A DNA stretch of 46,341 bases from a virus (taxonomy: Duplodnaviria; Caudoviricetes), in IMG/VR virus record IMGVR_UViG_3300020045_005441, positions 1 through 46,341 of that record; one strand, 5' to 3'. Shown here in pieces: positions 1,154-46,315 of this stretch. Both the position numbers and the translations under genes were made by a program. The notes beneath the pieces are model-generated. The model did no database searches and had not been told where the DNA came from. It was given only the letters and a program-made list of their open reading frames with translations. Every line of letters begins with the position of its first letter. Within the stretch, counting starts at the first letter, position 1.

Positions 1154-2743
1154 TTGGCATACGTCAACATATTTGTGCAAGGGGATAGTTTTGATACTAT
1201 CGACCTGACCGCAAAGCTTGCGGATGATTGGGCGCATTGGGGGATAGCAAGTGGTGCGCCTACTGTGCGAAAGCTTGGCGGAAACCTGATTGGAAACCTT
1301 TCATTGGTGGGCGGAGGGTCTGCGAGCTTTGGCATATCGCCAAGGCTTGTATCATGGTCTGATGGCACGCCTACATTGTCCGGGATAGACGGAAAGACAA
1401 CATTTAACCAAGGCAATACGGTTGGTGCTGGGATGAAGCTTAATTTTCCGTGCAGCACATCTCCACGCATTGCCGTGCTGTATTGCACCTATTTTAACCT
1501 TGCCGATGTAAAGATAACGGGTACGATAAACGAGACGATACCAGTCGTATCGACAAACACCGGAAACCTACCACCCGTATACAGCCAAAACAAAAACGCG
1601 CTTGTCTATATCTATTACCAGGGAGACACGGACGGAAATTCGCTGACAGTCCAAATGGAGAACTACAGGCAAGGCAATGCCGGTTCTTTTAATTTTACGC
1701 TTGAGGCTGCAACGGTAAATTTGCTTGACACCGTTGGTGATGTTTTTTTGTGGAGTACGGACATACCATCAGGCAATGACGTATGGCTTAGGCCGTTTTC
1801 CCCGGGTTCAGCGGTAATAAACAGCCTTGCAGAGCAAGCTTTCTATTTTGGCCAGCAGGTGGGGTATTTTGCAAGCATGGTTGCCATTGCCGCGCAATTG
1901 TCAGAAATATCAAGTGCAAGCTCACAAACAAAGGAATCCGTTGGCGATGCATTGCAGTCTGTTGACATAACGCAACAAGGAACTTATACAAAAAACAATT
2001 CCGTCATAATAATAAGCAGCGCCGCACAATTGTTGGGGTTAAAGCAGTCTTTGTCAGCAATAAAATCACTGTTTTCAGCAATAACAAATAGGTCAGCAAC
2101 AAAAGCGCAGTCTACTTCTATCAAGGCAAACATAGTTTCCGTGGTGCAATTGGGCAACACAAGGCAGTTTGACACGCCATCAAGGCTGTCCAATAACGAC
2201 GTATCCCAAGCTCAGGCATTACGCAGATTAGGCGCATCATCAAGGCTGTCCATAACGGCATTGGCTCAATTGACCGGAATAAAAGGTACGCTGTCTGGTT
2301 ATGGCAGCAAGTCAAGCACGGTATTGACAAGCATAAAAATATCTGAGGAAGGCTCTTATTCCAAGTCTGTCGGGGTTGTTATCATATCAAGCGCATCCCA
2401 GGCTTTGGAAATAAGGCAGTCATTGTCAGGCTCAAAATCAGCACAAGGGATATTGGTACAACAATCTAGGCTTTCTGGTCTTGACACTTATACGCGCAAG
2501 GCAATAGTTAACTCTTTACAAAAGCTTGGAATTAATGTAGGGATAACGTATAATACAACGCCAGGGGCTATAGTTGTCGTTACCGACCCGTGTTCGGGGC
2601 AATCGACAGACCTTACCATCATTCCGTTTGGGAGCAGGTTTGAAAACGAGACCATTGATTTTAGCTTGTGCGGCGGTGAAGACCGATTTGATATGATGCG
2701 TAATGACCTACTCACATCGCTAAAGGCAAAGGGCTTGCTATGA
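1154..2743 (+). CDS. Putative fibre/decoration protein: N-terminal beta domain and S/Q/A-rich repetitive stalk
   Basis: 529-aa ORF filling the gap up to the head gene; internal repeat IIISSAAQLLGLKQSLS / VIISSASQALEIRQSLS; TTG start is uncertain. Confidence 0.6.
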   Translation: MAYVNIFVQGDSFDTIDLTAKLADDWAHWGIASGAPTVRKLGGNLIGNLSLVGGGSASFGISPRLVSWSDGTPTLSGIDGKTTFNQGNTVGAGMKLNFPCSTSPRIAVLYCTYFNLADVKITGTINETIPVVSTNTGNLPPVYSQNKNALVYIYYQGDTDGNSLTVQMENYRQGNAGSFNFTLEAATVNLLDTVGDVFLWSTDIPSGNDVWLRPFSPGSAVINSLAEQAFYFGQQVGYFASMVAIAAQLSEISSASSQTKESVGDALQSVDITQQGTYTKNNSVIIISSAAQLLGLKQSLSAIKSLFSAITNRSATKAQSTSIKANIVSVVQLGNTRQFDTPSRLSNNDVSQAQALRRLGASSRLSITALAQLTGIKGTLSGYGSKSSTVLTSIKISEEGSYSKSVGVVIISSASQALEIRQSLSGSKSAQGILVQQSRLSGLDTYTRKAIVNSLQKLGINVGITYNTTPGAIVVVTDPCSGQSTDLTIIPFGSRFENETIDFSLCGGEDRFDMMRNDLLTSLKAKGLL

Positions 2744-4575
2744 TACGCCTACAATTCGCCATAAAAAATTCCCCACTCCAAGACCGTTTTACTAAGCGTA
2801 AGGAACGCACGCTCAAACCAATCAGACCGTCACGCATGGCAGAGTCAAGTTACCGCGCCGATCTTTTGGCGTTAGTCAAAAAATTGACGCGACAAGTAAA
2901 TGAAATTATTGTCCCGCTTATCGACAAGCAAGCGTTTATAGGCGGAACAGATGGCCTATCATTTGCTAATGACGAATTGTCAAGCAGCGAAATAATAAGG
3001 GAAGTCAAGGAATTGGCAGCAAAAAACAACGTCCCGTATAAGACCGCCTACCGTATGTCACGTTTTGCCGCAGACAACGCAAAGGCAAACGTGGACGGAC
3101 GGTTAAGGGCGGAACTCAAAAAATCCGTAGGCATAGACATTGAGCCTATATTAAGGGCTGACAATAAATTGACACCATTGCTTGAAAAGGCGGTGCAAGA
3201 AAATGTCGAACTTATCACCACCATCCCGCAACAATATTTTGAAAAGCTTGAAAAACACATCACAAGCGCAGTTGCCCAAGGCGCGAGGCATGAAAAACTA
3301 AAGGAAGTGGTAAAATATATTGGGAATGTAACGGAAAATAGGGCTAAATTGATTGCACGCGACCAAATCAGCAAGATGAATGGGAGTTTTAACCGTATCA
3401 GGCAAACAAGCATAGGCATAGACTCCTATCGTTGGTCTACCAGTGGGGATGAGCGCGTTAGGGAAACGCACGCAGAAAATGACGGAAAGGTGTTCAAATG
3501 GGATTCACCACCATCAGAAACCGGAAACCCTGGAGAGGACATTAATTGCTTTTCAGGCGACAACCAATTGCACGGAACGCCTTTCATAGAGAAATTTTAT
3601 AGGCGTTTCTACTCTGGCGAACTGACCGAGTTGATTTTGGATAACGGTGCTATTCTTAGATGTACACCTAACCATCCTATATTCTGGCGTGATGGAAGTA
3701 AGCCCGCTAAACTCTTTGATGTCGGAGATAATATTATTGGAGAAATGAATCAATTCATCCCTGTTGGTGAAACATATTCCAAAAACTCTAATCCCATGTT
3801 TGAACAACTGTTCAGCTCTGTAAATATGTTTCCCTGTTTTTTTCCAACGAATGTTACAGGCGGAGAGTTCCACGGCGACATTACCGACAAGGAAGTCAAT
3901 ATTATAACCTGCAATAGCGGCTTGGTATTGGAAACTTATGTTTCCACATGCAAGAAGATGAAATATATCGGTTTCACATCGTCCGATATGTCCTTCGTAT
4001 GGGCTATGCTGTCTAGTGATTGCGCCTTTTTGTCGTACCTCCAAAGTCTTCCTGACTCCACTGACGGATTGGTTAGCAGATTTTGTTTGTTGTTGTCTCT
4101 GCTCGAAAGTCATTTTACTGTTTTTGACCTTTTCTGCTTCGCTTCTGGTGCGTGTTTTGATTCCAGCCCCTTTAATTTCACGGTTGACGACACCCCTGTC
4201 AACCCCGAACCTTTTAGCGATTTGATTGGGGCTTATGCCTTGCTCGTAGAGGGCTTTGACCTCGTCAAGAGGAAGCGTGATTTTATTGTTGGGGTATTTT
4301 CCAATACGGGTGTCCGTATTTATTCCCCTAGCCCTGAGTTTCTTACCAATGACATCAGGGCTAACGTTTATGACAGAGGAAATAGCGCGAAGGGAGAAGC
4401 CTTGAGATATAAGGTTCTGAGCGTGGTCGATAAGGCTACTTGCTATTATGAAGGGCATGTTTATAATCTACAGACTAAAAACGGGTATTATAACACATCT
4501 GGCGCATTTGTTCAAAATTGCCGTTGCGTGGCAATCCCGTATTTTGACCTTGACGCAATGGAGGCAAGCCTATGA
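2740..4575 (+). CDS. Phage head morphogenesis protein (SPP1 gp7 / Mu gpF family), intein-containing
   Basis: RAKLIARDQ, YRWSTSGDERVRETH and PGEDIN|CRC motifs; position upstream of the protease/capsid genes. Confidence 0.92.
   Translation: MIRLQFAIKNSPLQDRFTKRKERTLKPIRPSRMAESSYRADLLALVKKLTRQVNEIIVPLIDKQAFIGGTDGLSFANDELSSSEIIREVKELAAKNNVPYKTAYRMSRFAADNAKANVDGRLRAELKKSVGIDIEPILRADNKLTPLLEKAVQENVELITTIPQQYFEKLEKHITSAVAQGARHEKLKEVVKYIGNVTENRAKLIARDQISKMNGSFNRIRQTSIGIDSYRWSTSGDERVRETHAENDGKVFKWDSPPSETGNPGEDINCFSGDNQLHGTPFIEKFYRRFYSGELTELILDNGAILRCTPNHPIFWRDGSKPAKLFDVGDNIIGEMNQFIPVGETYSKNSNPMFEQLFSSVNMFPCFFPTNVTGGEFHGDITDKEVNIITCNSGLVLETYVSTCKKMKYIGFTSSDMSFVWAMLSSDCAFLSYLQSLPDSTDGLVSRFCLLLSLLESHFTVFDLFCFASGACFDSSPFNFTVDDTPVNPEPFSDLIGAYALLVEGFDLVKRKRDFIVGVFSNTGVRIYSPSPEFLTNDIRANVYDRGNSAKGEALRYKVLSVVDKATCYYEGHVYNLQTKNGYYNTSGAFVQNCRCVAIPYFDLDAMEASL
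3553..4458 (-). CDS. Antisense, intein-nested putative homing endonuclease (2x HTH + basic linker + DUF559/Vsr-like domain)
   Basis: 301-aa ORF; HTH-like GFSLRAISSVINVS and LYEQGISPNQIAKRFGVD; nuclease-like FQYQAAIAGYNIDFLVGNVAVEL...LFKHGIRV; own promoter upstream. Confidence 0.75.
   Translation of the reverse strand: MPFIIASSLIDHAQNLISQGFSLRAISSVINVSPDVIGKKLRARGINTDTRIGKYPNNKITLPLDEVKALYEQGISPNQIAKRFGVDRGVVNREIKGAGIKTRTRSEAEKVKNSKMTFEQRQQQTKSANQSVSGVRKTLEVRQKGAITRQHSPYEGHIGRCETDIFHLLACGNISFQYQAAIAGYNIDFLVGNVAVELSACNIRWKKTGKHIYRAEQLFKHGIRVFGICFTNRDELIHFSNNIISDIKEFSGLTSITPEYRMVRCTSKNSTVIQNQLGQFARVETPIKFLYERRSVQLVVA
4487..4515 (-). promoter_or_regulatory. Sigma70-type promoter for the antisense ORF: TTGAAC-17 bp-TATAAT with extended -10 TGTG
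   Basis: Reverse complement of 4510-4515 is TTGAAC and of 4487-4492 is TATAAT; spacer 17 bp; ATG at 4458. Confidence 0.7.
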
Positions 4576-5738
4576 TAGCCAACGCAAATGATACGATACC
4601 ATTGCAAAAAAGCAAGATAACCGAACAAGGCTACCTTGTAGCTGACGGCATCATAGCCAGGACTGGGATACAGGAATATTACGGGTATGAATTCGGGCTG
4701 GACGGGCTCAAGCCAAACGACATAATCAGGCTTTACCGCCCGCCGTCCGAAGTGTTTGCCCCAGATTCATTGGCAAGCTTTGAGAATGCGCCTATCACGA
4801 TAGGCCATCCTGATGTTAATGTGACCGTTGACAATTGGAAGGAGATAGCAAAGGGTGAGCTTACCAACGTCCGTAAGCAAAACGATTCTCACGTATGTGG
4901 AAAACTTACCGTAAAAGACGGAACGGCAATATCAGCGATACAGAATGGGAAAAAACAATTGTCAAACGGGTACTCATTTACCCTTGACATGACACCGGGG
5001 GTTATAAATGGACAGGCTTATGATGGTATACAGCGTAACATACGAGGCAACCATTTGGCTTTAGTTGATAGGGCAAGGTGTGGTTCGGCTTGCTCTATCA
5101 TTGATAACAACCCCGAACCGATAACGAAAGGAGAGCCGAACATGGCTGATATTACATTGAGAAAAATGGTCGTGGACGGAATTCCGGTCGAAGTATCGGA
5201 CGCAGCCGCCGCTGTCATTGAAAAGTTACAAAAGGCATTGGACGGAAAAGATGCTGATTTGGTCGAATTGACCAAATCGGTTGAAACGCTAACCAATGAC
5301 CATAGCGCAAAAATTGCCGCAAAGGATGCGGAAATTGCAGAACTTAAGAAGTCTGTAATGACGCCACATGCACGTGATGCGATGGTTGCTGAATGGGCGA
5401 GCCTGATCGGGACTGCAAAGAAACTTAAGCCTGAAATTGAAGTGGTTGGTAAAGACTGCGAAACGGTTAGGCGTGAGGTGGTTGATTTTGTGATGGCACA
5501 AGACAATAGCATGGCAAGCGTGGCAAAGTCTATCGTAAAAGATGGCACGCCATCTGGCGACCTGCTAAAAATTGTTTTTGATGCAATCGCGCCATTGATA
5601 GAAGAAACAGAAATAAAGGCAAACGACGGCGAACATTTTGCCGCACAACAACCAAAGCCTTCTATTGTAGGCAGAGACAAATTTTTAAAGACTAGCCAAG
5701 ATGCTTGGCAACAACCTGGAGTAAAACAACATGGCTAA
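4572..5738 (+). CDS. DUF2213-like prohead protease/scaffold protein
   Basis: IARTGIQEY, YRPPSEVF, PITIGHP, LSNGY, NHLALVDRARCG motifs; coiled-coil C-terminal half. Confidence 0.85.
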   Translation: MIANANDTIPLQKSKITEQGYLVADGIIARTGIQEYYGYEFGLDGLKPNDIIRLYRPPSEVFAPDSLASFENAPITIGHPDVNVTVDNWKEIAKGELTNVRKQNDSHVCGKLTVKDGTAISAIQNGKKQLSNGYSFTLDMTPGVINGQAYDGIQRNIRGNHLALVDRARCGSACSIIDNNPEPITKGEPNMADITLRKMVVDGIPVEVSDAAAAVIEKLQKALDGKDADLVELTKSVETLTNDHSAKIAAKDAEIAELKKSVMTPHARDAMVAEWASLIGTAKKLKPEIEVVGKDCETVRREVVDFVMAQDNSMASVAKSIVKDGTPSGDLLKIVFDAIAPLIEETEIKANDGEHFAAQQPKPSIVGRDKFLKTSQDAWQQPGVKQHG

Positions 5739-9265: not shown

Positions 9266-9697
9266 ATGGCACTAAAAGCATTCTCACAATACCTCGCAGA
9301 ACTCCCTGAATTAAGCGCAATGGACGGTAGCGATTATTTGCTTGCGCTTGATAATCCAAACGCGTCTGCGAGTAAGACAAAGCCTACAAGCAGCTCAATA
9401 CCAGTCCTTACCATCCCGGCATCCGGTGCAAGCCAATCGCTTATAATCCCTAGCAATGGCGACGTGTGCTATGACATTACATTGACCACCACATGCACGC
9501 TTTCGATATCAGGAGGAACGTCAGGACGTTATCAGACCGTGACGCTTATATTGCGTGGCGCATTGCCTTATGTGTTCGCTAACACAATTAAATGGCAAGC
9601 TGGGGTAGCTCCAGCGCCTAACCTTATTGCTGGCAAAATGGACAAAATAACCATAACCACGCCAGACGCAGGTGCTACCTTGTTCGGTAGCTACTGA
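9266..9697 (+). CDS. Putative fibre adaptor protein
   Basis: N-terminal LAELPELSAMDGSDYLL; C-terminal TVTLIL...IKWQAGVAP...DKITITT beta domain seen in fibre proteins. Confidence 0.6.
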   Translation: MALKAFSQYLAELPELSAMDGSDYLLALDNPNASASKTKPTSSSIPVLTIPASGASQSLIIPSNGDVCYDITLTTTCTLSISGGTSGRYQTVTLILRGALPYVFANTIKWQAGVAPAPNLIAGKMDKITITTPDAGATLFGSY

Positions 9698-11781
9698 TGG
9701 CCTGGAATTTATTCACCAATACTGTATTCCCTGCGATAGCGACACCGTCTGTAGCACAGGGGGAAACGCTTTATGATGGCTGGATAGAAACGGGCGGCAA
9801 CACAAACGAGATATTGGCCAGTGGCCTGATAGGACAGACATCAATCATTGCCAACCCTTGGCTAAATGCCCGCATGATGAGGCCGTTGTCGGAATCAAAA
9901 CGCAACTCAAGGTTTGTATTAACCTTTGTTGCAGCCCCATTGTCAAGCCCAACATTGCTTTGTTACCTACGCGGAAACCATGCAAAATCGACGTTTACTG
10001 GGTATATCCCATTTATTGCTCAAGACGGGTCAAGCTTTCGGCTTTACCCTTGTGTTAACGGAGTATTAAAAACGCTTGTCAATGCCGCCACAGGAACTAC
10101 TACGGTTTCAGGCACACAATATAAATTGGATGTCGAGGTCGTACAGACAGATGCGGCAACCAGCACATTGACCTATACGCTACGCAACATGGACGGTTCG
10201 CAACGCGGCAACGTCATGACGATAGTCGATGCCACCCCTGAGCTACAGAACATCGCTGGCGTCCCAGGATTTGGAATCAACGCAAATGGCGTAAACCCTG
10301 TAGGAATTGGCAGGATAGCGGCTGTTGACACCTACCAGCAACCTCCGGTAGAAGCCACAACTTATACGGTTACGGCACAAATATCTGGTGCGGTCAACAT
10401 TGCGTCCAGTGCGTTCCTAATTTACCCGAACAATGACGGGGTGTTTGCGGACACCACCATAACGCCATCAGACAATGGCGGTGGCGGCACGTTTACGCCA
10501 TCGTCAATCGTGTTGGCAGCATTGCAAACATTGCCTGGGTCGTTCACCTATACCCCTGGTTCTGCTGGCGTAAAAACAATCAGCTACACAAACAGCGGCA
10601 CTCTTTCAAACCCAGCAAACACAAGCTTTACTGCAAGCGTATACAACATTGTACCGATCACAAAAGGTAGGTTTTCGCCCGGTAATTGGAAAGACAATGC
10701 TGGTAGGGGTGGTGCGCTATGGCGAAAAACCTGGAACATCGGTGCATGGTTCACTTACAAATGGACGGCAAGCGCAAGCCCAACGTGCAGCATATTGGTT
10801 GAGCCAAATACAAGCTCCACTAACGTATTTGCCATTTATTTAAACGGCGTGCTTACCGACGCAGTCCCTGCCATTGGAAATATGTCAGTAAATGGCGTTA
10901 TTCCAAATTCTGTAAATACGTTAAAAGTATATGTATCAAACAGCATAAACAATTACAGGTGGAACGACGGGGTAAACACCGTACGAATAAACGGGTTGTT
11001 GCTTGACCTTGGTTCTATTGAAATAGATGTATCCACACCTATGCCATGGGGATTAATCAGCGGAGACAGCATTACTCAGGGGGTGCTTGCAAATTCCGGG
11101 GTAGGGTCTTTTATCCATACCTATACTTTTGGTCTTTCCAACATGCTGGAGCAGTTGGGGTATGATTTATGTGTAAATGCATGTTCAAGCGTTGGCTGGA
11201 CGGTTGTAGGTAATGCCCTTGGAGACGTTCCTGCTTATTGCAAATCTGACGGCACTGGCTATAGGGACGACTTAAGCCGTTGGAACAAGATAGACCAAGG
11301 TGTTAGCCTTCTTGACGCAAACGGAAAGATAAGCGCGTATGGTCAGCTTGGACAAGAGCCATCTTTTATCATAATAAACCTTTTAACCAATGATTGTGGG
11401 TTTGCCGCAAATGTGACTCATACGCAAGCAAGCATATTACAAGGATTGACATTGCTCAGGAATGCCGCAAAAAATGCGGCTATAGTCCTGATAATACCGC
11501 CAGGGCTTTATGACACAAGCATAGCAAACAACACAAATTCTGCGGTGTATATTGCTGCAATCAAGGCCGCATATAATGCTTATGTTGCAGCAAACCCTTA
11601 TGACGGGCTTATTGATTTAGTTGATTTTGGGGTTGATTTTGCCAAGACATTGAGCCGTGGAATTTACACCAATGATGGCGTACATCCGTCAACCACAGGT
11701 CATTCTATAATGTCGGCTAAACTTGTGCAAAGGATAGTTGCGTCACTCAATAAGTTGTTTGCACGTTGGACATATTCATGA
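9697..11781 (+). CDS. Multi-domain beta-rich protein with C-terminal SGNH/GDSL hydrolase (putative virion esterase)
   Basis: GDSITQG, LLTND and DGVHP catalytic blocks. Confidence 0.8.
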   Translation: MAWNLFTNTVFPAIATPSVAQGETLYDGWIETGGNTNEILASGLIGQTSIIANPWLNARMMRPLSESKRNSRFVLTFVAAPLSSPTLLCYLRGNHAKSTFTGYIPFIAQDGSSFRLYPCVNGVLKTLVNAATGTTTVSGTQYKLDVEVVQTDAATSTLTYTLRNMDGSQRGNVMTIVDATPELQNIAGVPGFGINANGVNPVGIGRIAAVDTYQQPPVEATTYTVTAQISGAVNIASSAFLIYPNNDGVFADTTITPSDNGGGGTFTPSSIVLAALQTLPGSFTYTPGSAGVKTISYTNSGTLSNPANTSFTASVYNIVPITKGRFSPGNWKDNAGRGGALWRKTWNIGAWFTYKWTASASPTCSILVEPNTSSTNVFAIYLNGVLTDAVPAIGNMSVNGVIPNSVNTLKVYVSNSINNYRWNDGVNTVRINGLLLDLGSIEIDVSTPMPWGLISGDSITQGVLANSGVGSFIHTYTFGLSNMLEQLGYDLCVNACSSVGWTVVGNALGDVPAYCKSDGTGYRDDLSRWNKIDQGVSLLDANGKISAYGQLGQEPSFIIINLLTNDCGFAANVTHTQASILQGLTLLRNAAKNAAIVLIIPPGLYDTSIANNTNSAVYIAAIKAAYNAYVAANPYDGLIDLVDFGVDFAKTLSRGIYTNDGVHPSTTGHSIMSAKLVQRIVASLNKLFARWTYS

Positions 11782-24259: not shown

Positions 24260-25441
24260 ATGTTTAAAAAAATACTGTTACCATTGTTACTGGCGTTGTC
24301 TTTCAATGCTTATTCTCTCACCTTTCCGACCATCATCACTGTAACCGGGATTAGTTCTACCAATTCCCTGCCAGCGGCACAATCCAATAGGGTAGCCATA
24401 CAAAGTGCCGTAGATTCATGTACTGACCCGTTAGGCTGTACTGTACGCATTATTGACAAGGATGCTTTTATAGATGCTTGCGTAAGTGCGCGCGGCGTAG
24501 CCGTACCCAACAATGTACGGGTTAGTGTCGAAAGGTCATACTTAAAGGTATATCCAAACAATTGCTCAAAGTACGAGATGTTTCGGTTTTGGGGTAAGCA
24601 TGATTCCGAACTACGATTAGGCGGCACTAGCGCATTAATCGGTGATAAATTGACGCACGTCAATGCTGATATACCGTCTGATTGCGCTGCAACAGACACG
24701 GACGAATGTGGGCATTTAATTAGCATCACTGATTCACAAAATATAGTTGTCTCAGATGGCACTGCTACATTGGCTAATGGCGACGGGATTTACATTGGAG
24801 GTGACAATAGCCTTGGCAATAATATTACGGTTAATTATATGAAGCTAAATAATAACCGTAGACAGGGAATTAGCGTAATTAGCGGGTCTAACATTACGAT
24901 TGAGAAAAACTGGCTGGTAAACACAGGGCAATCAGGGTTTTACGCCCCTCCAGGTTTGGGTCTTGATGCAGAGGTAAATGGCTGTCCTCAACGTGTAATT
25001 AACCTTAAGGTTGTCAATAACTATTTTGGCAATAACATCGGCGGCGGATTTAAAGCTTATTCACCTGTATGCCCTAATGACCGTACCATAACTACCGACG
25101 ATGTTTACCAAAATATGATAGTTTCTGACAATATATTCAATGAAAATGTAGCACCGCTTTCATTTTCTAACGCAATGAATATTATTGCCGAACATAATAC
25201 TATTAAATCTGCAAATAACGATTTCTTTTACTTTGCAGGTGCGGCGGATATTATAGTACGAAGGAATACTGTAAGGAAAACAGGGGCGTTAGGTGGTTAC
25301 TTAGTTGGCGTAGATCAATCAAGGGTAAGCGTAGGAAACTTGGTACAAGACAACGTCTATTTTAATATAGCAAACCCTGTCTGGCCTTCAAATACGCCGG
25401 CTAGTGTGGTGACATTTGATGGCAACTTGTACAGCGATTAA
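24260..25441 (+). CDS. Secreted right-handed beta-helix (pectin lyase-like) protein
   Basis: Signal peptide; GDGIYIG, NNRRQGISVISGSNITI and GLDAE beta-helix motifs. Confidence 0.8.
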   Translation: MFKKILLPLLLALSFNAYSLTFPTIITVTGISSTNSLPAAQSNRVAIQSAVDSCTDPLGCTVRIIDKDAFIDACVSARGVAVPNNVRVSVERSYLKVYPNNCSKYEMFRFWGKHDSELRLGGTSALIGDKLTHVNADIPSDCAATDTDECGHLISITDSQNIVVSDGTATLANGDGIYIGGDNSLGNNITVNYMKLNNNRRQGISVISGSNITIEKNWLVNTGQSGFYAPPGLGLDAEVNGCPQRVINLKVVNNYFGNNIGGGFKAYSPVCPNDRTITTDDVYQNMIVSDNIFNENVAPLSFSNAMNIIAEHNTIKSANNDFFYFAGAADIIVRRNTVRKTGALGGYLVGVDQSRVSVGNLVQDNVYFNIANPVWPSNTPASVVTFDGNLYSD

Positions 25442-26268: not shown

Positions 26269-26832
26269 TTAGGTGTTTGCATCAACAGCATTAAATTCAT
26301 CTTCGTCCAAATAAAACCTTAGCACTTTTGAAAAGATGCTCGTTGCCTCAGTATCTTTTCTTGCTTTGGCCGCTTTGAATTTTGAAATCAATTCAGCAAC
26401 CGTTATTTCTAATACTTGATCGCGGGAAATTCTGATTTCAACCGATCCAATAACATCTAGTTCTTTTTCAATAATTAAATTTGTGTTTTCGATAGGACGT
26501 GTCTGCTCGACGTGATATTCCAACGCGCCAAGGGCTTCGCGCATAATTTCGGCATCCTCTAGCCTCCTATCTTTCATACCAGCACTGTATCCGCGCATAA
26601 ATACTGGCGAATCTTTTTCATGCTTTTCTTTGATAACATTGTCACGACGTTCGTTCCAGAAATGACCAAATCCGATTTCGTTACTTTCAAGAGTGCAGCC
26701 ACAGTCGGTGCATTCAACGATTGCCGATCTTCTTGAGCTTCCGAACTGGACAACATCCGCCTCTCCGCCACAAAATGGGCAAGGTTTTAATTCTTCCTTC
26801 TTGTCTGTCTTCAATTCTTCAATGCTCATCAT
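26269..26832 (-). CDS. Lar-family restriction alleviation Zn-finger protein with C-terminal extension
   Basis: LKPCPFCGG...VECTDCG...WNER. Confidence 0.7.
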   Translation of the reverse strand: MMSIEELKTDKKEELKPCPFCGGEADVVQFGSSRRSAIVECTDCGCTLESNEIGFGHFWNERRDNVIKEKHEKDSPVFMRGYSAGMKDRRLEDAEIMREALGALEYHVEQTRPIENTNLIIEKELDVIGSVEIRISRDQVLEITVAELISKFKAAKARKDTEATSIFSKVLRFYLDEDEFNAVDANT

Positions 26833-32577: not shown

Positions 32578-33144
32578 TTAACGCACCGTCAACGATTCTT
32601 TCCGTTCCAAAATCACCCCAGGCAACAAGTCGGACGTGACTACTGCAATGGACGGGTCTAGCTTTTTAAGGTCTGCCCTGTATATTTCATCCCTAAGCAT
32701 TTGCACAATTTCCTTATTGTTCAATTCCTTGTGTTCTGGCACTACAGTCACAAGCCCAGGCGGTAGCTTTTCGATGTCAAAGTTTTCGCTAAATGCCAGA
32801 GACCCTGGAGTGAGCTGATGGGTTAGGTTAAGCAGCGAACCCTTAAATTTAGAGATGTTGAAATCGACAAGAATTGACAGGATGAATTCACGCAGCTTGT
32901 TTACCGTCCGCTCGTCGCGTTCCTTGTTTTTCTTTAGCCGTTCGGTTGCAGAACGCAATGCTTCTTTTGAAATGTCTGACTTGGTGATTGCTTCGGCAAG
33001 GATGGTGGTAAGGAATTCCAGTTTTTTGTCAACGTCACCATGTATGCGAAGCAATACATCATGGATTTGTTCGTCATCTTCGGCAAATTCCAGCTCTGAC
33101 AAAGCCGCTTCGTGTTCTTTTTTTAGGTCGTATATTGTAGCCAT
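32578..33144 (-). CDS. Siphovirus Gp157-like coiled-coil protein
   Basis: TIYDL...coiled coil...PGVILERKESLTVR C-terminus. Confidence 0.7.
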   Translation of the reverse strand: MATIYDLKKEHEAALSELEFAEDDEQIHDVLLRIHGDVDKKLEFLTTILAEAITKSDISKEALRSATERLKKNKERDERTVNKLREFILSILVDFNISKFKGSLLNLTHQLTPGSLAFSENFDIEKLPPGLVTVVPEHKELNNKEIVQMLRDEIYRADLKKLDPSIAVVTSDLLPGVILERKESLTVR

Positions 33145-37645: not shown

Positions 37646-38956
37646 ATGTTGAGCCTTGAGGATTTATCTTTTGAATTCACCGACGAGGAGCTAAACCCAT
37701 TTATTGAGGTTGTCCAGGACGACAAGCCACAAGCCCAGGAGTGGGTTTCCAACATCACCGAGGAAATAGATTACATGATACCGTTCCCGGGGTTGGCAAG
37801 GGACATCCAGCAATGGATAATTTCCACGAGCATAAAGGTACAACCTGCCCTTGCTTTTGCCGCGACATTGTCTGTGCTTTCCACAGCTTACGGTCGCAAC
37901 TACAACATGCAGGGGATAAAGGGTAACTTTATGAGCCTATGCTTGGCTGAATCCGGGGAGGGAAAGGACTGGCCTTTAAAGTCTTGCCAGCGGATATTGG
38001 AGGCAGTCGGTATGGGTCACCATGTTTATGGTGACATGGCATCCGGTGCGGCTTTGGTCGATGCGATCAACGAAACCCCGTCGGCATTGTTACAGATAGA
38101 CGAGGCGGGGCATTATTTCGCAAGCATAAACAGCAAGACATCCAACCAGTTTTCACGCGAGATCATGCCTATCATAACGAAATGTGCAACGTCCGGGAGC
38201 GATTATTACCTGGACAAGAAACGCAAGGGGCAGGATGCGAGGAAGATAACAGAGCCTAACTTGTCGGTATTTGGAATGAGTACCGAGCGGCAAATTATTG
38301 ACTCCCTAAAGTCAAGCGAAGTGTCGGATGGTTCTTTGGCTCGCTTTATGGTGATATTTGGTTTAAATGACGTTCCTATAACGCAAAACCGAGCAAGCAA
38401 TGCCACCGTGCCTGAAAGCATCAAACGCCGCTTAGAATTGATTAAGGGCGGTCAGTTTATGTTAAAGAGCAAGGAAGTGATACCGAGCAAGGAATATATC
38501 GAACGCAAGGAAGAATTGGAGCATTACTTTAACGGCCTTGCCATAGCGATTGGGCGGCAAACAGGCGACAAGGCATTGTTCAAGCCTTTTTACCATCGGC
38601 TTGCCGTGCGCTCCGTGTCAATGTCGTTATTGATAGACCAATGCCAGGATATGATGGTGCTGGAATGGTGCGCGCGTATCGTACAAAAGTCTTGTGAAGT
38701 TTTTATCAAGAAGTTTTGCCACCTTGCAGCTGACAATGAAAATGAGAAGTATGTCAAGGTCATTGAGCGTGCGATAAAGGAAGCCGGGAAACAAGGGATA
38801 ACGAAAGAGAAGTTTTACGACAAGACCCGATGCGTCGAATCAGGGCTTAAGAAGCGCGTGCTTGCAGACCTGTTTGACAGCAATAAGATATTCACCGAGG
38901 AAACCACGTCGGAACGTGCAAAGAAACCGACGACCACTTATTTTTGGAGGAAGTGA
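37646..38956 (+). CDS. Replication helicase-like P-loop protein (DUF3987-like) with C-terminal winged helix
   Basis: AESGEGKD Walker A, QIDEAG Walker B, PNLSVFGMST, DGSLARF. Confidence 0.75.
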   Translation: MLSLEDLSFEFTDEELNPFIEVVQDDKPQAQEWVSNITEEIDYMIPFPGLARDIQQWIISTSIKVQPALAFAATLSVLSTAYGRNYNMQGIKGNFMSLCLAESGEGKDWPLKSCQRILEAVGMGHHVYGDMASGAALVDAINETPSALLQIDEAGHYFASINSKTSNQFSREIMPIITKCATSGSDYYLDKKRKGQDARKITEPNLSVFGMSTERQIIDSLKSSEVSDGSLARFMVIFGLNDVPITQNRASNATVPESIKRRLELIKGGQFMLKSKEVIPSKEYIERKEELEHYFNGLAIAIGRQTGDKALFKPFYHRLAVRSVSMSLLIDQCQDMMVLEWCARIVQKSCEVFIKKFCHLAADNENEKYVKVIERAIKEAGKQGITKEKFYDKTRCVESGLKKRVLADLFDSNKIFTEETTSERAKKPTTTYFWRK

Positions 38957-39621
38957 TGAAAATTGTAACCATAGGCCATTGCACCCTAATCCACACTGAC
39001 TGCATGGATGTTATGCGCGAGATGCAGGATAAGGCGTTTGATTTGGCTATAACTGACCCTCCGTATGGGATAGGAATAAGCTCTAATCCTGTTAGGCAGA
39101 TGCATAGTAAAAAATCATGGGATTTTGAAATTCCACAAAATACTTATTTTGATTCATTAAAAAGAGTGTCTATTAACCAAATAATATGGGGAGGGAATTA
39201 TTTTTTGGATTATTTGGGTGCAACCCAATGTTTTATTATATGGGACAAAATTCAACCTCATGATTTTAGTTTGGCTATGTGTGAACTTGCATGGACGAGC
39301 ATACAAAGTCCGGCAAAGATGTGGAGGCGTTCTGTGTTAGCGGAAAAAGACAAGATTCACCCAACGCAGAAACCTTGTGATCTGTATTCTTGGCTACTAA
39401 CCAACTACGCCAAACCAGGGCAAACCATACTAGACACGCATCTAGGCTCTGGCAGTTCAGCGATTGCAGCCAATAAATTAGGATTTAGCTTTACCGGAAT
39501 TGAGCTGGACGAGGACTATTTTAACGCTGCATGTGAGCGCATAGAAAATGCTTACAAGCAAGTGAGCCTCTTCGACGTTGAGCCGGACAAGGCGGAAATA
39601 AAGCAAGAATCATTATTGTAA
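38956..39621 (+). CDS. DNA N6-adenine/N4-cytosine methyltransferase (beta class)
   Basis: DLAITDPPYG, HPTQKP, LDTHLGSGSS. Confidence 0.92.
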   Translation: MKIVTIGHCTLIHTDCMDVMREMQDKAFDLAITDPPYGIGISSNPVRQMHSKKSWDFEIPQNTYFDSLKRVSINQIIWGGNYFLDYLGATQCFIIWDKIQPHDFSLAMCELAWTSIQSPAKMWRRSVLAEKDKIHPTQKPCDLYSWLLTNYAKPGQTILDTHLGSGSSAIAANKLGFSFTGIELDEDYFNAACERIENAYKQVSLFDVEPDKAEIKQESLL

Positions 39622-44365: not shown

Positions 44366-45725
44366 CCTATACGCCGTTGACGGCCTTGAAAACGTAGTCG
44401 CTGGGCTTGGGACAGAACGCGACAAGCGGAGCTATTCAGGATACGGGCAAATAACCCCGCTGTCATGGATGGAGCTTGACAATATGTATCGTGGCTCGTG
44501 GCTGGCAAAACGTATCGTCAATTCCGTTGCTGATGACATGACGCGGGAATGGATAGATGTCAGCATCGAGGGAGAGGATGATTTTGATTTTGACGACATA
44601 GAAAAGCCTTGGGGATTGCGCGACAAAGTAAACAAGGCGATCAAATGGGCGCGGCTTTATGGCGGAGCTGCAATAATTGTCGGTACAAAGTCAAGCGAAC
44701 TGCACAAGCCATTAGAAATAAGCAAGCTTAAGAAAGGCGACCTTAGTTACCTGCATGTAATGGATAGGCACATGCTTACATGGTCTGGAGACGTTGACAC
44801 GGACATAGAGTCTCCAAACTTTAACTACCCAACAACATACATCCACGCAACTAGCCAAAAAACGATACATTGGACTCGTGTCATACGGTTTGAAGGCCAA
44901 ATGCTACCGGAACAAGCTTGGGTAACGAACCAACGTTGGGGCGATAGCGAATTACAGCACGTCATTGACAGCATAACATCGTACGACAGCACAAGGGACA
45001 TTATCCATTCAATGCTGTACGAGGCCAACGTAGACGTTCTCAAGGCCGTTGGTATGGGTGAGCTTATGGCTACTAAGGACGGCGAAAAAAAGATAATAAA
45101 ACGATTCCAGACCGCCGCGCTGATGAAATCAATCAACCGGGTATTCCTTCTTGATGATTCAGAAACTTACGAAAAGAAATCAAACAACTTCACTAACCTT
45201 TCGGAAATCTGGGGACGGTTTATCGACGATGTTTGTGGTTCGGCGGAAATACCAAAGGCAAGGCTTTTTGGTGACAGTCCAGGAGGCTTGAACTCAACCG
45301 GGAAAGGTGAGCTTATCAATTATTACGACATGGTGAGCAACAAGCAAGAATCCACTATCTATAGGCAAGTAGAGACGTTGGCAACACTTTTGATAACCAA
45401 CGATTCAGGCAACTTCCCAGAAGAAGTTGGCATTGATTTCCGTCCTTTATGGCAAATATCAGAAACCGAAAAGACCGCAAATTCAAAAGTAAGGGCGGAA
45501 ACTGACAATATCTATTTGCAGGCTGGCGTGGTTACACCTGCTGAAATAGCGCAATCGCTACTTAACGAAAATACCTACCCTGCAATGACCCCTGAATCAA
45601 TACAGCTGCTTGAAGAGCTGGAGCAGCCACCAAACCAAGACCCGCAAGACCCGATGCAAACAACCCAACAACCAGCCGAAGGCGTGCAGCCTGAAAGCGG
45701 AAACCGTGAGGATACACAACAATGA
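44358..45725 (+). CDS. Portal protein (DUF1073/HI1409 type)
   Basis: Follows TerL; YRGSWLAKRIV, ARLYGGA, IPKARLFGDSPGGLNSTG, FRPLWQ. Confidence 0.88.
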   Translation: MTSLYAVDGLENVVAGLGTERDKRSYSGYGQITPLSWMELDNMYRGSWLAKRIVNSVADDMTREWIDVSIEGEDDFDFDDIEKPWGLRDKVNKAIKWARLYGGAAIIVGTKSSELHKPLEISKLKKGDLSYLHVMDRHMLTWSGDVDTDIESPNFNYPTTYIHATSQKTIHWTRVIRFEGQMLPEQAWVTNQRWGDSELQHVIDSITSYDSTRDIIHSMLYEANVDVLKAVGMGELMATKDGEKKIIKRFQTAALMKSINRVFLLDDSETYEKKSNNFTNLSEIWGRFIDDVCGSAEIPKARLFGDSPGGLNSTGKGELINYYDMVSNKQESTIYRQVETLATLLITNDSGNFPEEVGIDFRPLWQISETEKTANSKVRAETDNIYLQAGVVTPAEIAQSLLNENTYPAMTPESIQLLEELEQPPNQDPQDPMQTTQQPAEGVQPESGNREDTQQ

Positions 45726-46315
45726 GTTTTACCGACGCATACACAAACACCGTCCTAGACCTTGCGCTAGTGACTGGCGACAAGCTTTCGCTACATACCG
45801 CCTATTCGACCACAGGCGCTAACGAAATAACCGGAGGCACTTATGCCCGTGGAACAGCGATATTTTCCGCCGCTGCATCCAGGCAGAAGGCAATATCCTC
45901 CCCTGTTGCCATAACTGGCCTTCCAGCCGCTGCGGTGGTTGCTTGGGTTGGGGTTTGGAATTCCGCAGGTTCTGTGTTCAAGGGCATGGCGGCAAATGGC
46001 GGTAGTGAGTTTCCGTTCCAGGTTGGATTGACACCAAACACATTGCTTGCCGAAGCGCATGTGCTTGTAAACGGAGACAATGTTACATTTACCGGAACGC
46101 CACCAACAGGGCTTACCGAAGGGGCCGTCTATTTTGTGGTTGGAAACACGGCTGGAGACCCTGACACGTTCCAAGTGTCGGCAACCAGCGGCGGTGCTGC
46201 AATAGACATAACAGGGCAACCAGGGGCGAATTGTATGGCATCAAAAATAATTGTCGAAACATACGTTGGTGCTGGTGGTACGCATACCATAAACACGCAC
46301 GTCACAAAAATGTAA
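45722..46315 (+). CDS. Putative virion fibre/appendage protein
   Basis: LSLHTA...GANEITGGTYAR motif plus a small beta module (LVNGDNVTF...GLTEGAVYFV...DTFQVSAT). Confidence 0.65.
   Translation: MSFTDAYTNTVLDLALVTGDKLSLHTAYSTTGANEITGGTYARGTAIFSAAASRQKAISSPVAITGLPAAAVVAWVGVWNSAGSVFKGMAANGGSEFPFQVGLTPNTLLAEAHVLVNGDNVTFTGTPPTGLTEGAVYFVVGNTAGDPDTFQVSATSGGAAIDITGQPGANCMASKIIVETYVGAGGTHTINTHVTKM

Follow-up and report, generated by a model that had tools for sequence, protein, structure and literature searches.

Does the in-frame insert in the minor head gene of this phage carry a homing endonuclease gene on its opposite strand, and is that gene under selection? The window, meaning the whole stretch of DNA analyzed here, spans an entire virus record (46,341 bases) that carries direct terminal repeats. 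Its genes match families for terminase, portal, major capsid, tail sheath, baseplate, helicase, primase, Sak4, and Gam. Given this gene content, tail sheath and baseplate included, the phage is evidently of the myovirus type. The open reading frame (ORF) at 2740–4575 (+) encodes a 611-residue MuF/SPP1-gp7 head protein interrupted by the insert (Table 1). PF04233 covers residues 169–270 (E 9.6e-21; TIGR01641, E 4.7e-17), and the end of the MuF domain is the start of the insert. Relatives of this gp7 are found mostly in proteobacterial phages. In SPP1, gp7 is reported as a low-copy virion protein, present at 1–2 per capsid (PMC5576092), and the title of a cited reference describes it as needed for efficient infection.

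Table 1. Features of the interrupted gp7 gene and its two coding strands, in window positions
Feature	Position	Strand	Support or remark
N-extein, MuF/SPP1-gp7 minor head protein, 269 aa	2740..3546	+	PF04233, TIGR01641
Class-1-type intein, 324 aa, Cys1 ... Gln323-Asn324	3547..4518	+	Insert missing from 48 homologues; Hint-domain model
N-terminal splicing region, blocks A and B	3547..3744 (TPNHP 3664-3678)	+	Double-coded with the nuclease C-terminal hairpin
Sense interior, shadowing the antisense gene; helical model of low confidence	3745..4407	+	Without endonuclease match
C-terminal splicing region, blocks F and G	4408..4518	+	
C-extein, 18 aa, first residue is the +1 Cys; predicted spliced product 287 aa	4519..4575	+	
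Antisense gene, 301 aa, putative Vsr-like homing endonuclease	3553..4458	-	Start ATG is the block-F His304 codon; stop TGA is the Ser3 codon
Two helix-turn-helix units, aa 7-43 and 64-97	4168..4440	-	PF13936 E 3.4e-10; model helices; HTH matches Z 6.5, 6.2
Vsr/I-Bth0305I-like nuclease core, aa 155-253, with E162, Q179, D188, E197, R214	3700..3996	-	Structure, profile, conservation
C-terminal beta-hairpin, aa 259-297, opposite intein codons 8-46	3568..3684	-	Model
Putative ribosome-binding-site position, block-F codons Asn-Leu-Gln	4464..4474	-	Degenerate in the window copy
Predicted sigma-70-like promoter TTGAAC, 17 nt, TG-n-TATAAT, in block G	4487..4515	-	28 nt upstream of the ATG

Several other genes of the window are recorded here as side observations. 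The stretch from the portal gene to gp7, which crosses the record ends, contains four ORFs: 45722–46315, which has a partial PHROG head-protein match, and 11–538, 620–1153, and 1154–2743, which have no match in PHROG or Pfam. Additional genes upstream of gp7 are also present in a related locus (L001). The structural module includes a 694-residue gene (9697–11781) whose C-terminal domain is a GDSL lipase/acylhydrolase (E 5e-11), and a 393-residue right-handed beta-helix protein, possibly a depolymerase, is encoded past the lysis genes (24260–25441). A Lar-like restriction alleviation protein (26269–26832), a Mu Gam-like protein (32578–33144), and a DNA methyltransferase (38944–39621) complete this list.

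On the plus strand, the 972-bp insert (324 codons) begins with Cys1, carries TPNHP at residues 40–44 and HVYNL at 304–308, and ends in Asn directly before a Cys. Among 78 proteins (77 homologues and the window's own), the flanks are joined directly in 48, 23 have an insert at the site, the window included, and 7 were left uncalled. Cys1, Thr40, Asn42, His43, and Asn324 do not vary over 64 intein rows. These rows comprise the window and 63 distinct inteins from a search with the sense intein in which 80 of 421 matches were kept and ends were called in 71. One of the two sense search patterns (FHGD) is itself the shadow of a nuclease motif, so the set is enriched for nuclease-bearing inteins. 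Calling of intein ends by regular expression failed for 9 of 80 loci and 27 of 73 distinct loci; those rows are omitted from the counts, and most show intein motifs by eye. The sense model built from the 64-row alignment has a mean pLDDT of 68.6, reaching 80–96 at residues 1–60 and 86–96 at 291–324. Its best structural match is the Mtu RecA intein (Z 13.3, rmsd 2.7, 112 aligned), and the first 27 matches are all inteins or Hint domains (Z 13.3–7.4). PF14890 scores 21.6 bits on the window's single intein, below the curated cutoff of 35.8, and the intein call therefore rests on the family and the model. Two residues depart from the usual pattern. The penultimate residue is Gln323 rather than His, and block F has Asn at the place of Asp, the usual residue there. 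In class 1 inteins the penultimate His is usual, not universal, and it is missing from 28 of 58 inteins of this family.

The residues between blocks B and F look different. Block pLDDT values in the sense interior are mostly 36–72, with a few blocks near 80, and a structural search of the model gave no nuclease match to this region, only generic helical matches (Z ≤7). A domain search of the 64 intein members retrieved only PF14890 (60 members) and PF07591 (4 members), with no in-frame LAGLIDADG or HNH between blocks B and F. By this search, and by the selection on the opposite strand detailed below, the locus does not belong with the canonical inteins that carry a fused endonuclease.

Related inteins also vary in length and setting. 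One (P0010) is a 182-residue intein at the same gp7 site, too short for the complete antisense gene; it may be a mini-intein or the product of a deletion. Long MuF proteins with an ADP-ribosyltransferase domain at the C-terminus (P0004, P0055, and L005; the domain was seen in P0004) are a further setting of the intein, and there splicing would be required to join the MuF region and that domain normally.

On the minus strand, the ORF from 4458 to 3553 runs in exact codon register with the intein, and antisense stops within the insert are confined to sense codons 3 and 308. Elsewhere in the same genome, over 19 stretches, 3.9% of 7,432 codons read as stops on the opposite strand. This codon use gives a probability of 7e-6 for an open antisense run of 301 codons; chance runs in those stretches extend to at most 155. 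Of the 64 distinct inteins (from 80 of 421 matches), 63 have an open antisense frame; the sole internal stop, at intein codon 106 of L148, likely reflects decay. The stop that ends the antisense frame lies at intein codon 2–9 in 63 of 64. At E ≤ 1e-10 the antisense protein has 494 representatives, part of which may be HTH-only. When viral contigs were searched with the antisense alignment, the best 80 of 104 matches gave 79 loci, of which 77 sit inside a long ORF in exact register on the opposite strand; the two exceptions match via the HTH part only, and one of them (L057) encodes an HTH-HNH protein. Members of the family occur in Aaphi23, S1249, MSW-3, and Klebsiella, Vibrio, Salmonella, and Gordonia phages, as well as in 10 genome contigs from several phyla.

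Frame-specific silent changes identify the strand under selection. We counted single-base codon changes that were silent in just one of the two frames across 16 disjoint pairs of 62–97% identity, chosen by intein identity. In the intein interior, 587 were silent only in the antisense frame vs 221 only in the sense frame. The exteins gave 63 antisense-only vs 653 sense-only changes, the region after block F gave 15 vs 77, and blocks A–B gave 74 vs 136. Given these counts, the interior is governed by the antisense protein, and blocks A–B are constrained in both frames. Amino acid identity in the interior over the same pairs is 0.65–0.66 for the antisense protein vs 0.53–0.56 for the sense protein. 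Individual positions across the 64 inteins tell the same story: antisense E162 is fixed while the opposing sense residue varies (34 Leu, 30 Phe), as are D188 (37 Val, 27 Ile) and Y185 (37 Ile, 27 Val), and R214 is kept in 63 of 64 opposite Ala, Ser, or Thr. Sense Phe108 is TTC in 64 of 64, which yields antisense E197 and never Lys. The original prediction had described a gp7-like gene split by an in-frame insert with intein hallmarks, a sense interior that reads like the shadow of a gene on the other strand, and a 301-residue minus-strand ORF in exact register. All three descriptions hold, and the antisense frame proves to be conserved across homologous inteins, with both frames under selection. 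The family is a clear natural example in which 900 bp are double-coded, codon against codon, and selection is measurable on both strands.

What does the antisense gene encode? Its model, built from a 110-row alignment, has a pLDDT of 95.2 and comprises a pair of HTH units, basic helices, a core of the Vsr type, and a long hairpin at the C-terminus, in agreement with the initial reading as two HTH units, a basic linker, and a Vsr/DUF559-like region. The best structural matches are Vsr (1cw0; Z 10.4, rmsd 6.9, 126 aligned), I-Bth0305I (3r3p; Z 9.2, rmsd 3.6, 95 aligned), and 3hrl (Z 8.4), and a profile search links the protein to 3r3p at E 1.6e-4. A Foldseek comparison of the nuclease model with the PDB gave no match at E ≤ 0.001, with 3r3p ranked second at 5e-3. 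Searches of the window's antisense protein against Pfam, NCBIfam, and PHROGs returned HTH-region matches only and no nuclease family; among its 110 homologues, REase_MTES_1575 is matched by 27 and DUF559 by 11. The modeled product is likely an HTH plus Vsr-like nuclease and likely the homing endonuclease of the intein. L057 (2965–3720) and L059 carry the same two-HTH front end joined to an HNH domain, without a host ORF on the opposite strand, and the HTH DNA-binding module is evidently swapped among nucleases. The antisense gene escapes standard annotation: the records of Aaphi23 (L162), Sampson (L160), and the Escherichia phage Snoke (L161) hold no CDS for it, and the intein is annotated only in Snoke.

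The putative active site resembles those of characterized enzymes in part. E162, D188, and E197 align with E170, D196, and E206 of I-Bth0305I (numbering of PMC3239194), and Q179 lies nine residues before the Asp, like Gln42 of Vsr (PMC2677866), a match by spacing only. Across homologues of 24–39% identity, E162, D188, and E197 are present in 110 of 110, Q179 in 108 of 110, and Arg or Lys at position 214 in 110 of 110. EDxHD residues His213 and Asp222 are not kept, R204 and H211 standing at the aligned places. The window nuclease is, by this alignment, not a strict EDxHD member, having equivalents of E170, D196, and E206 without those of H213 and D222. Because the EDxHD His and last Asp are missing, its chemistry cannot be the unchanged chemistry of I-Bth0305I. 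The original prediction had cautioned that the stretch ELSACNIRW might denote a divergent or inactive nuclease. Divergence from the EDxHD His and Asp is upheld; decay of the window copy is not, given that a His in this stretch occurs in only 11 of 110 homologues while E162, D188, and E197 are invariant. A GGxWH-type motif is found in 6 of the 110 and E-x-K in 25. The His loss is, on this evidence, clade-wide, and we infer that the site is probably active with altered chemistry.

Beyond the protein itself, we examined signals for its expression within blocks F and G. The block-F His codon, read on the opposite strand, supplies the antisense start ATG; this His codon is CAT in 58 of 59 cases, compared with 22/64 at His43, 12/31 at His323, and 81/191 in exteins; these start-signal counts, like the promoter counts that follow, are inflated by relatedness of the inteins. 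Of the codons after this His, Asn is AAC in 49 of 62 and Leu is CTC in 41 of 62 vs 138/693 in exteins. An SD-like word, defined permissively and without a shuffle control, is present in 55 of 58 inteins, and the window is among the 3 that lack it. The start codon and the ribosome-binding position are conserved inside block F. Upstream, the window's predicted promoter has a perfect extended −10 consensus and a −35 hexamer with 4/6 matches in register; taken alone, it is not significant (p 0.12 vs synonymous recoding; 4 sites vs 2.9 ± 1.6). A promoter is predicted at the same position in 14 of 58 inteins, including the window's, and 11 of 61 score p ≤ 0.05 when compared with synonymous recodings. 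In one clade of 12, the position just before the penultimate Ser varies among Val, Met, and Leu, while the bases spelling TTGACA on the opposite strand are kept in 11. The promoter occupies this position in 14/28 inteins lacking the penultimate His vs 0/30 bearing it, mostly in one clade plus L150. That the promoter drove the loss of the penultimate His is not supported, with independent pairs too few and a median p of 1. A terminator-like hairpin with a T run lies at 4638–4613 (−), and the antisense promoter follows it by ~100 bases. Past the end of the nuclease gene, a search down to position 3300 revealed no terminator on the minus strand, so the nuclease transcript may run on antisense to gp7.

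The distribution of the intein bears on whether it moves. On a 71-row extein tree, presence of the intein requires 12 changes (bootstrap 10–13), at least 4 of them forced by starred branches, vs a shuffled mean of 19.5, a pattern in which precise loss can mimic gain. Two alleles (P0004 and P0055) have exteins that are 99% identical, the first with and the second without the intein. The window and its nearest relative, L080, have 84% of intein bases in common vs 65% of extein bases, and they differ at 29 of 38 extein fourfold sites vs 11/86 to 14/91 intein sites, although double coding itself forces part of this similarity between the inteins and the pairs were chosen by intein identity. Given double coding, the choice of pairs, and loss that mimics gain, the mobility data fit homing without proving it. 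A search for close gp7 relatives returned only two intein-bearing contigs, with no close intein-free allele among them.

With a probability of roughly 0.8, we propose that the locus is a self-splicing intein in MuF/gp7 with an antisense HTH–Vsr-like gene that likely serves as its homing endonuclease. The late head transcript would yield the 611-residue precursor, and class 1 splicing through Cys1, Asn324, and the +1 Cys would produce the 287-residue gp7, while the shadow residues of the intein interior would loop out as inert cargo. The sigma-70-like promoter in block G would drive the nuclease gene separately, probably during DNA replication. Because gp7 is a low-copy virion protein (PMC5576092), a fused nuclease would be late and scarce; its own promoter would free the nuclease from this late, low-copy expression. 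The tandem HTH units and basic helices would bind a gp7 allele without the intein, in a co-infecting phage or a prophage, the Vsr-like core would nick or cut near the insertion site, and recombinational repair would copy the whole 972 bp. As to origin, a free-standing nuclease gene may have entered a mini-intein backwards, following the model of Gosselin et al. (bioRxiv 10.1101/2025.01.02.630785). A broader proposal is more tentative, and we place it at slightly under even odds: the large clade may be an active homing family with a Vsr fold that cuts without a His general base, via Glu-Gln-Asp-Glu-Arg, and whose start codon, ribosome-binding site, and, in a subclade, promoter lie within blocks F and G. 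If true, a splicing motif would double as an expression cassette, and a late head gene would carry an early nuclease.

Other explanations fit parts of the data. The antisense protein could be real but no longer a nuclease in this clade, acting as a DNA-binding protein or antisense regulator while the intein passes mainly by descent and module exchange. A His missing from 99 of 110 homologues, a GGxWH-type motif in so few of them, and strongest family matches to HTH domains are all consistent with this account. It sits poorly with five positions, E162, Q179, D188, E197, and R/K214, that stay nearly or fully invariant in proteins so divergent and that fall on named catalytic positions of I-Bth0305I and Vsr. 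The two alleles whose exteins are 99% identical but which differ in the intein also count against it: the intein-bearing one, P0004, shows the same shadow motifs in its sense frame. We consider loss of nuclease function unlikely, at about one chance in eight.

Silencing of the window copy alone, in a family otherwise active in homing, appears less probable still. Here the frame would be intact and poorly translated, as suggested by the loss of the SD-like word relative to L080 and most other inteins and by the imperfect −35 hexamer; the internal stop in L148 establishes that decay does happen in the family. Yet frame and start are intact, every invariant residue is kept, and the extended −10 is perfect. 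Interior changes between the window and L080 (18 silent in the antisense frame only, 12 in the sense frame only, and 15 in neither) are too few to decide. The remaining account, in which the antisense ORF is a codon-bias by-product opposite an ordinary intein with a functional sense interior, can draw on exact-register chance runs of up to 155 codons in this genome. We deem it refuted by the 7e-6 chance of the full run, the selection on the antisense frame, a sense interior that models poorly and matches no nuclease, and an antisense protein that models well and has hundreds of representatives.

A self-splicing intein with an antisense nuclease gene, the reading we prefer, was at first taken to be an undescribed arrangement. 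This was mistaken: Gosselin, Arsenault, and Gogarten report antisense VSR-like endonucleases in full inteins of actinobacteriophages and cite older antisense LAGLIDADG cases (Gorbalenya 1998, Gogarten 2002) (bioRxiv 10.1101/2025.01.02.630785). The IPR006528 minor capsid protein is one of four hosts of non-canonical inteins in that preprint. All minor-capsid inteins there had non-canonical endonucleases, which fits the proposed reason for the layout, namely a low-copy gp7 and a nuclease with its own promoter. As in the preprint, a separate ORF lies opposite an unbroken intein in the same host protein family, the antisense product matches 1CW0 (Z 10.6 there) and 3R3P, and the sense interior matches no nuclease. 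Unlike that set, the window phage is a myovirus whose gp7 has mostly proteobacterial-phage relatives, and ~60 codons of the nuclease gene overlap the splicing domain, whereas the second ORFs reported there typically lie outside it. Gordonia phage Sampson, which appears in the preprint's minor-capsid tree, has an intein with a homologous 265-codon antisense ORF (26% identity, E 1e-16) and the preprint's authors presumably class this intein as VSR-like. The window protein has two HTH units, and the Sampson match begins at the second; Sampson keeps the His seven residues past the conserved Glu, which the window protein lacks.

The locus is thus a further example of a layout already described in 2025, adding reach and detail and no new class. 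The main text of the preprint makes no mention of promoter, start codon, or ribosome binding, although its supplement may cover expression signals, and our literature search returned no further report of the layout or of such signals. The details beyond that main text are modest additions: expression signals in blocks F and G, and a clade that keeps Glu/Gln/Asp/Glu/Arg without the EDxHD His. Cultured relatives (Aaphi23, S1249, MSW-3, and the Klebsiella RCIP phages) would allow antisense expression and His-free cutting by a Vsr fold to be tested. Compared with I-Bth0305I and the EDxHD family (Taylor 2011, PMC3239194; Dassa 2009, PMC2677866), the window protein likewise joins N-terminal DNA-binding modules to a C-terminal Vsr fold. 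Its modules are HTH units instead of NUMOD repeats, and its gene is antisense within an unbroken intein rather than in an intron or between split-intein halves. The antisense LAGLIDADG inteins cited in the preprint (Synechocystis dnaX, Chloroflexus SpoVR-like, and Gordonia minor capsid) also place an endonuclease gene opposite the intein and differ in nuclease family. The ShiLan element (Arsenault 2025, PMC11855218) similarly hides a nuclease ORF in an in-frame insert of a phage gene, but its HNH nuclease is encoded on the same strand in a shifted frame, without a splicing domain.
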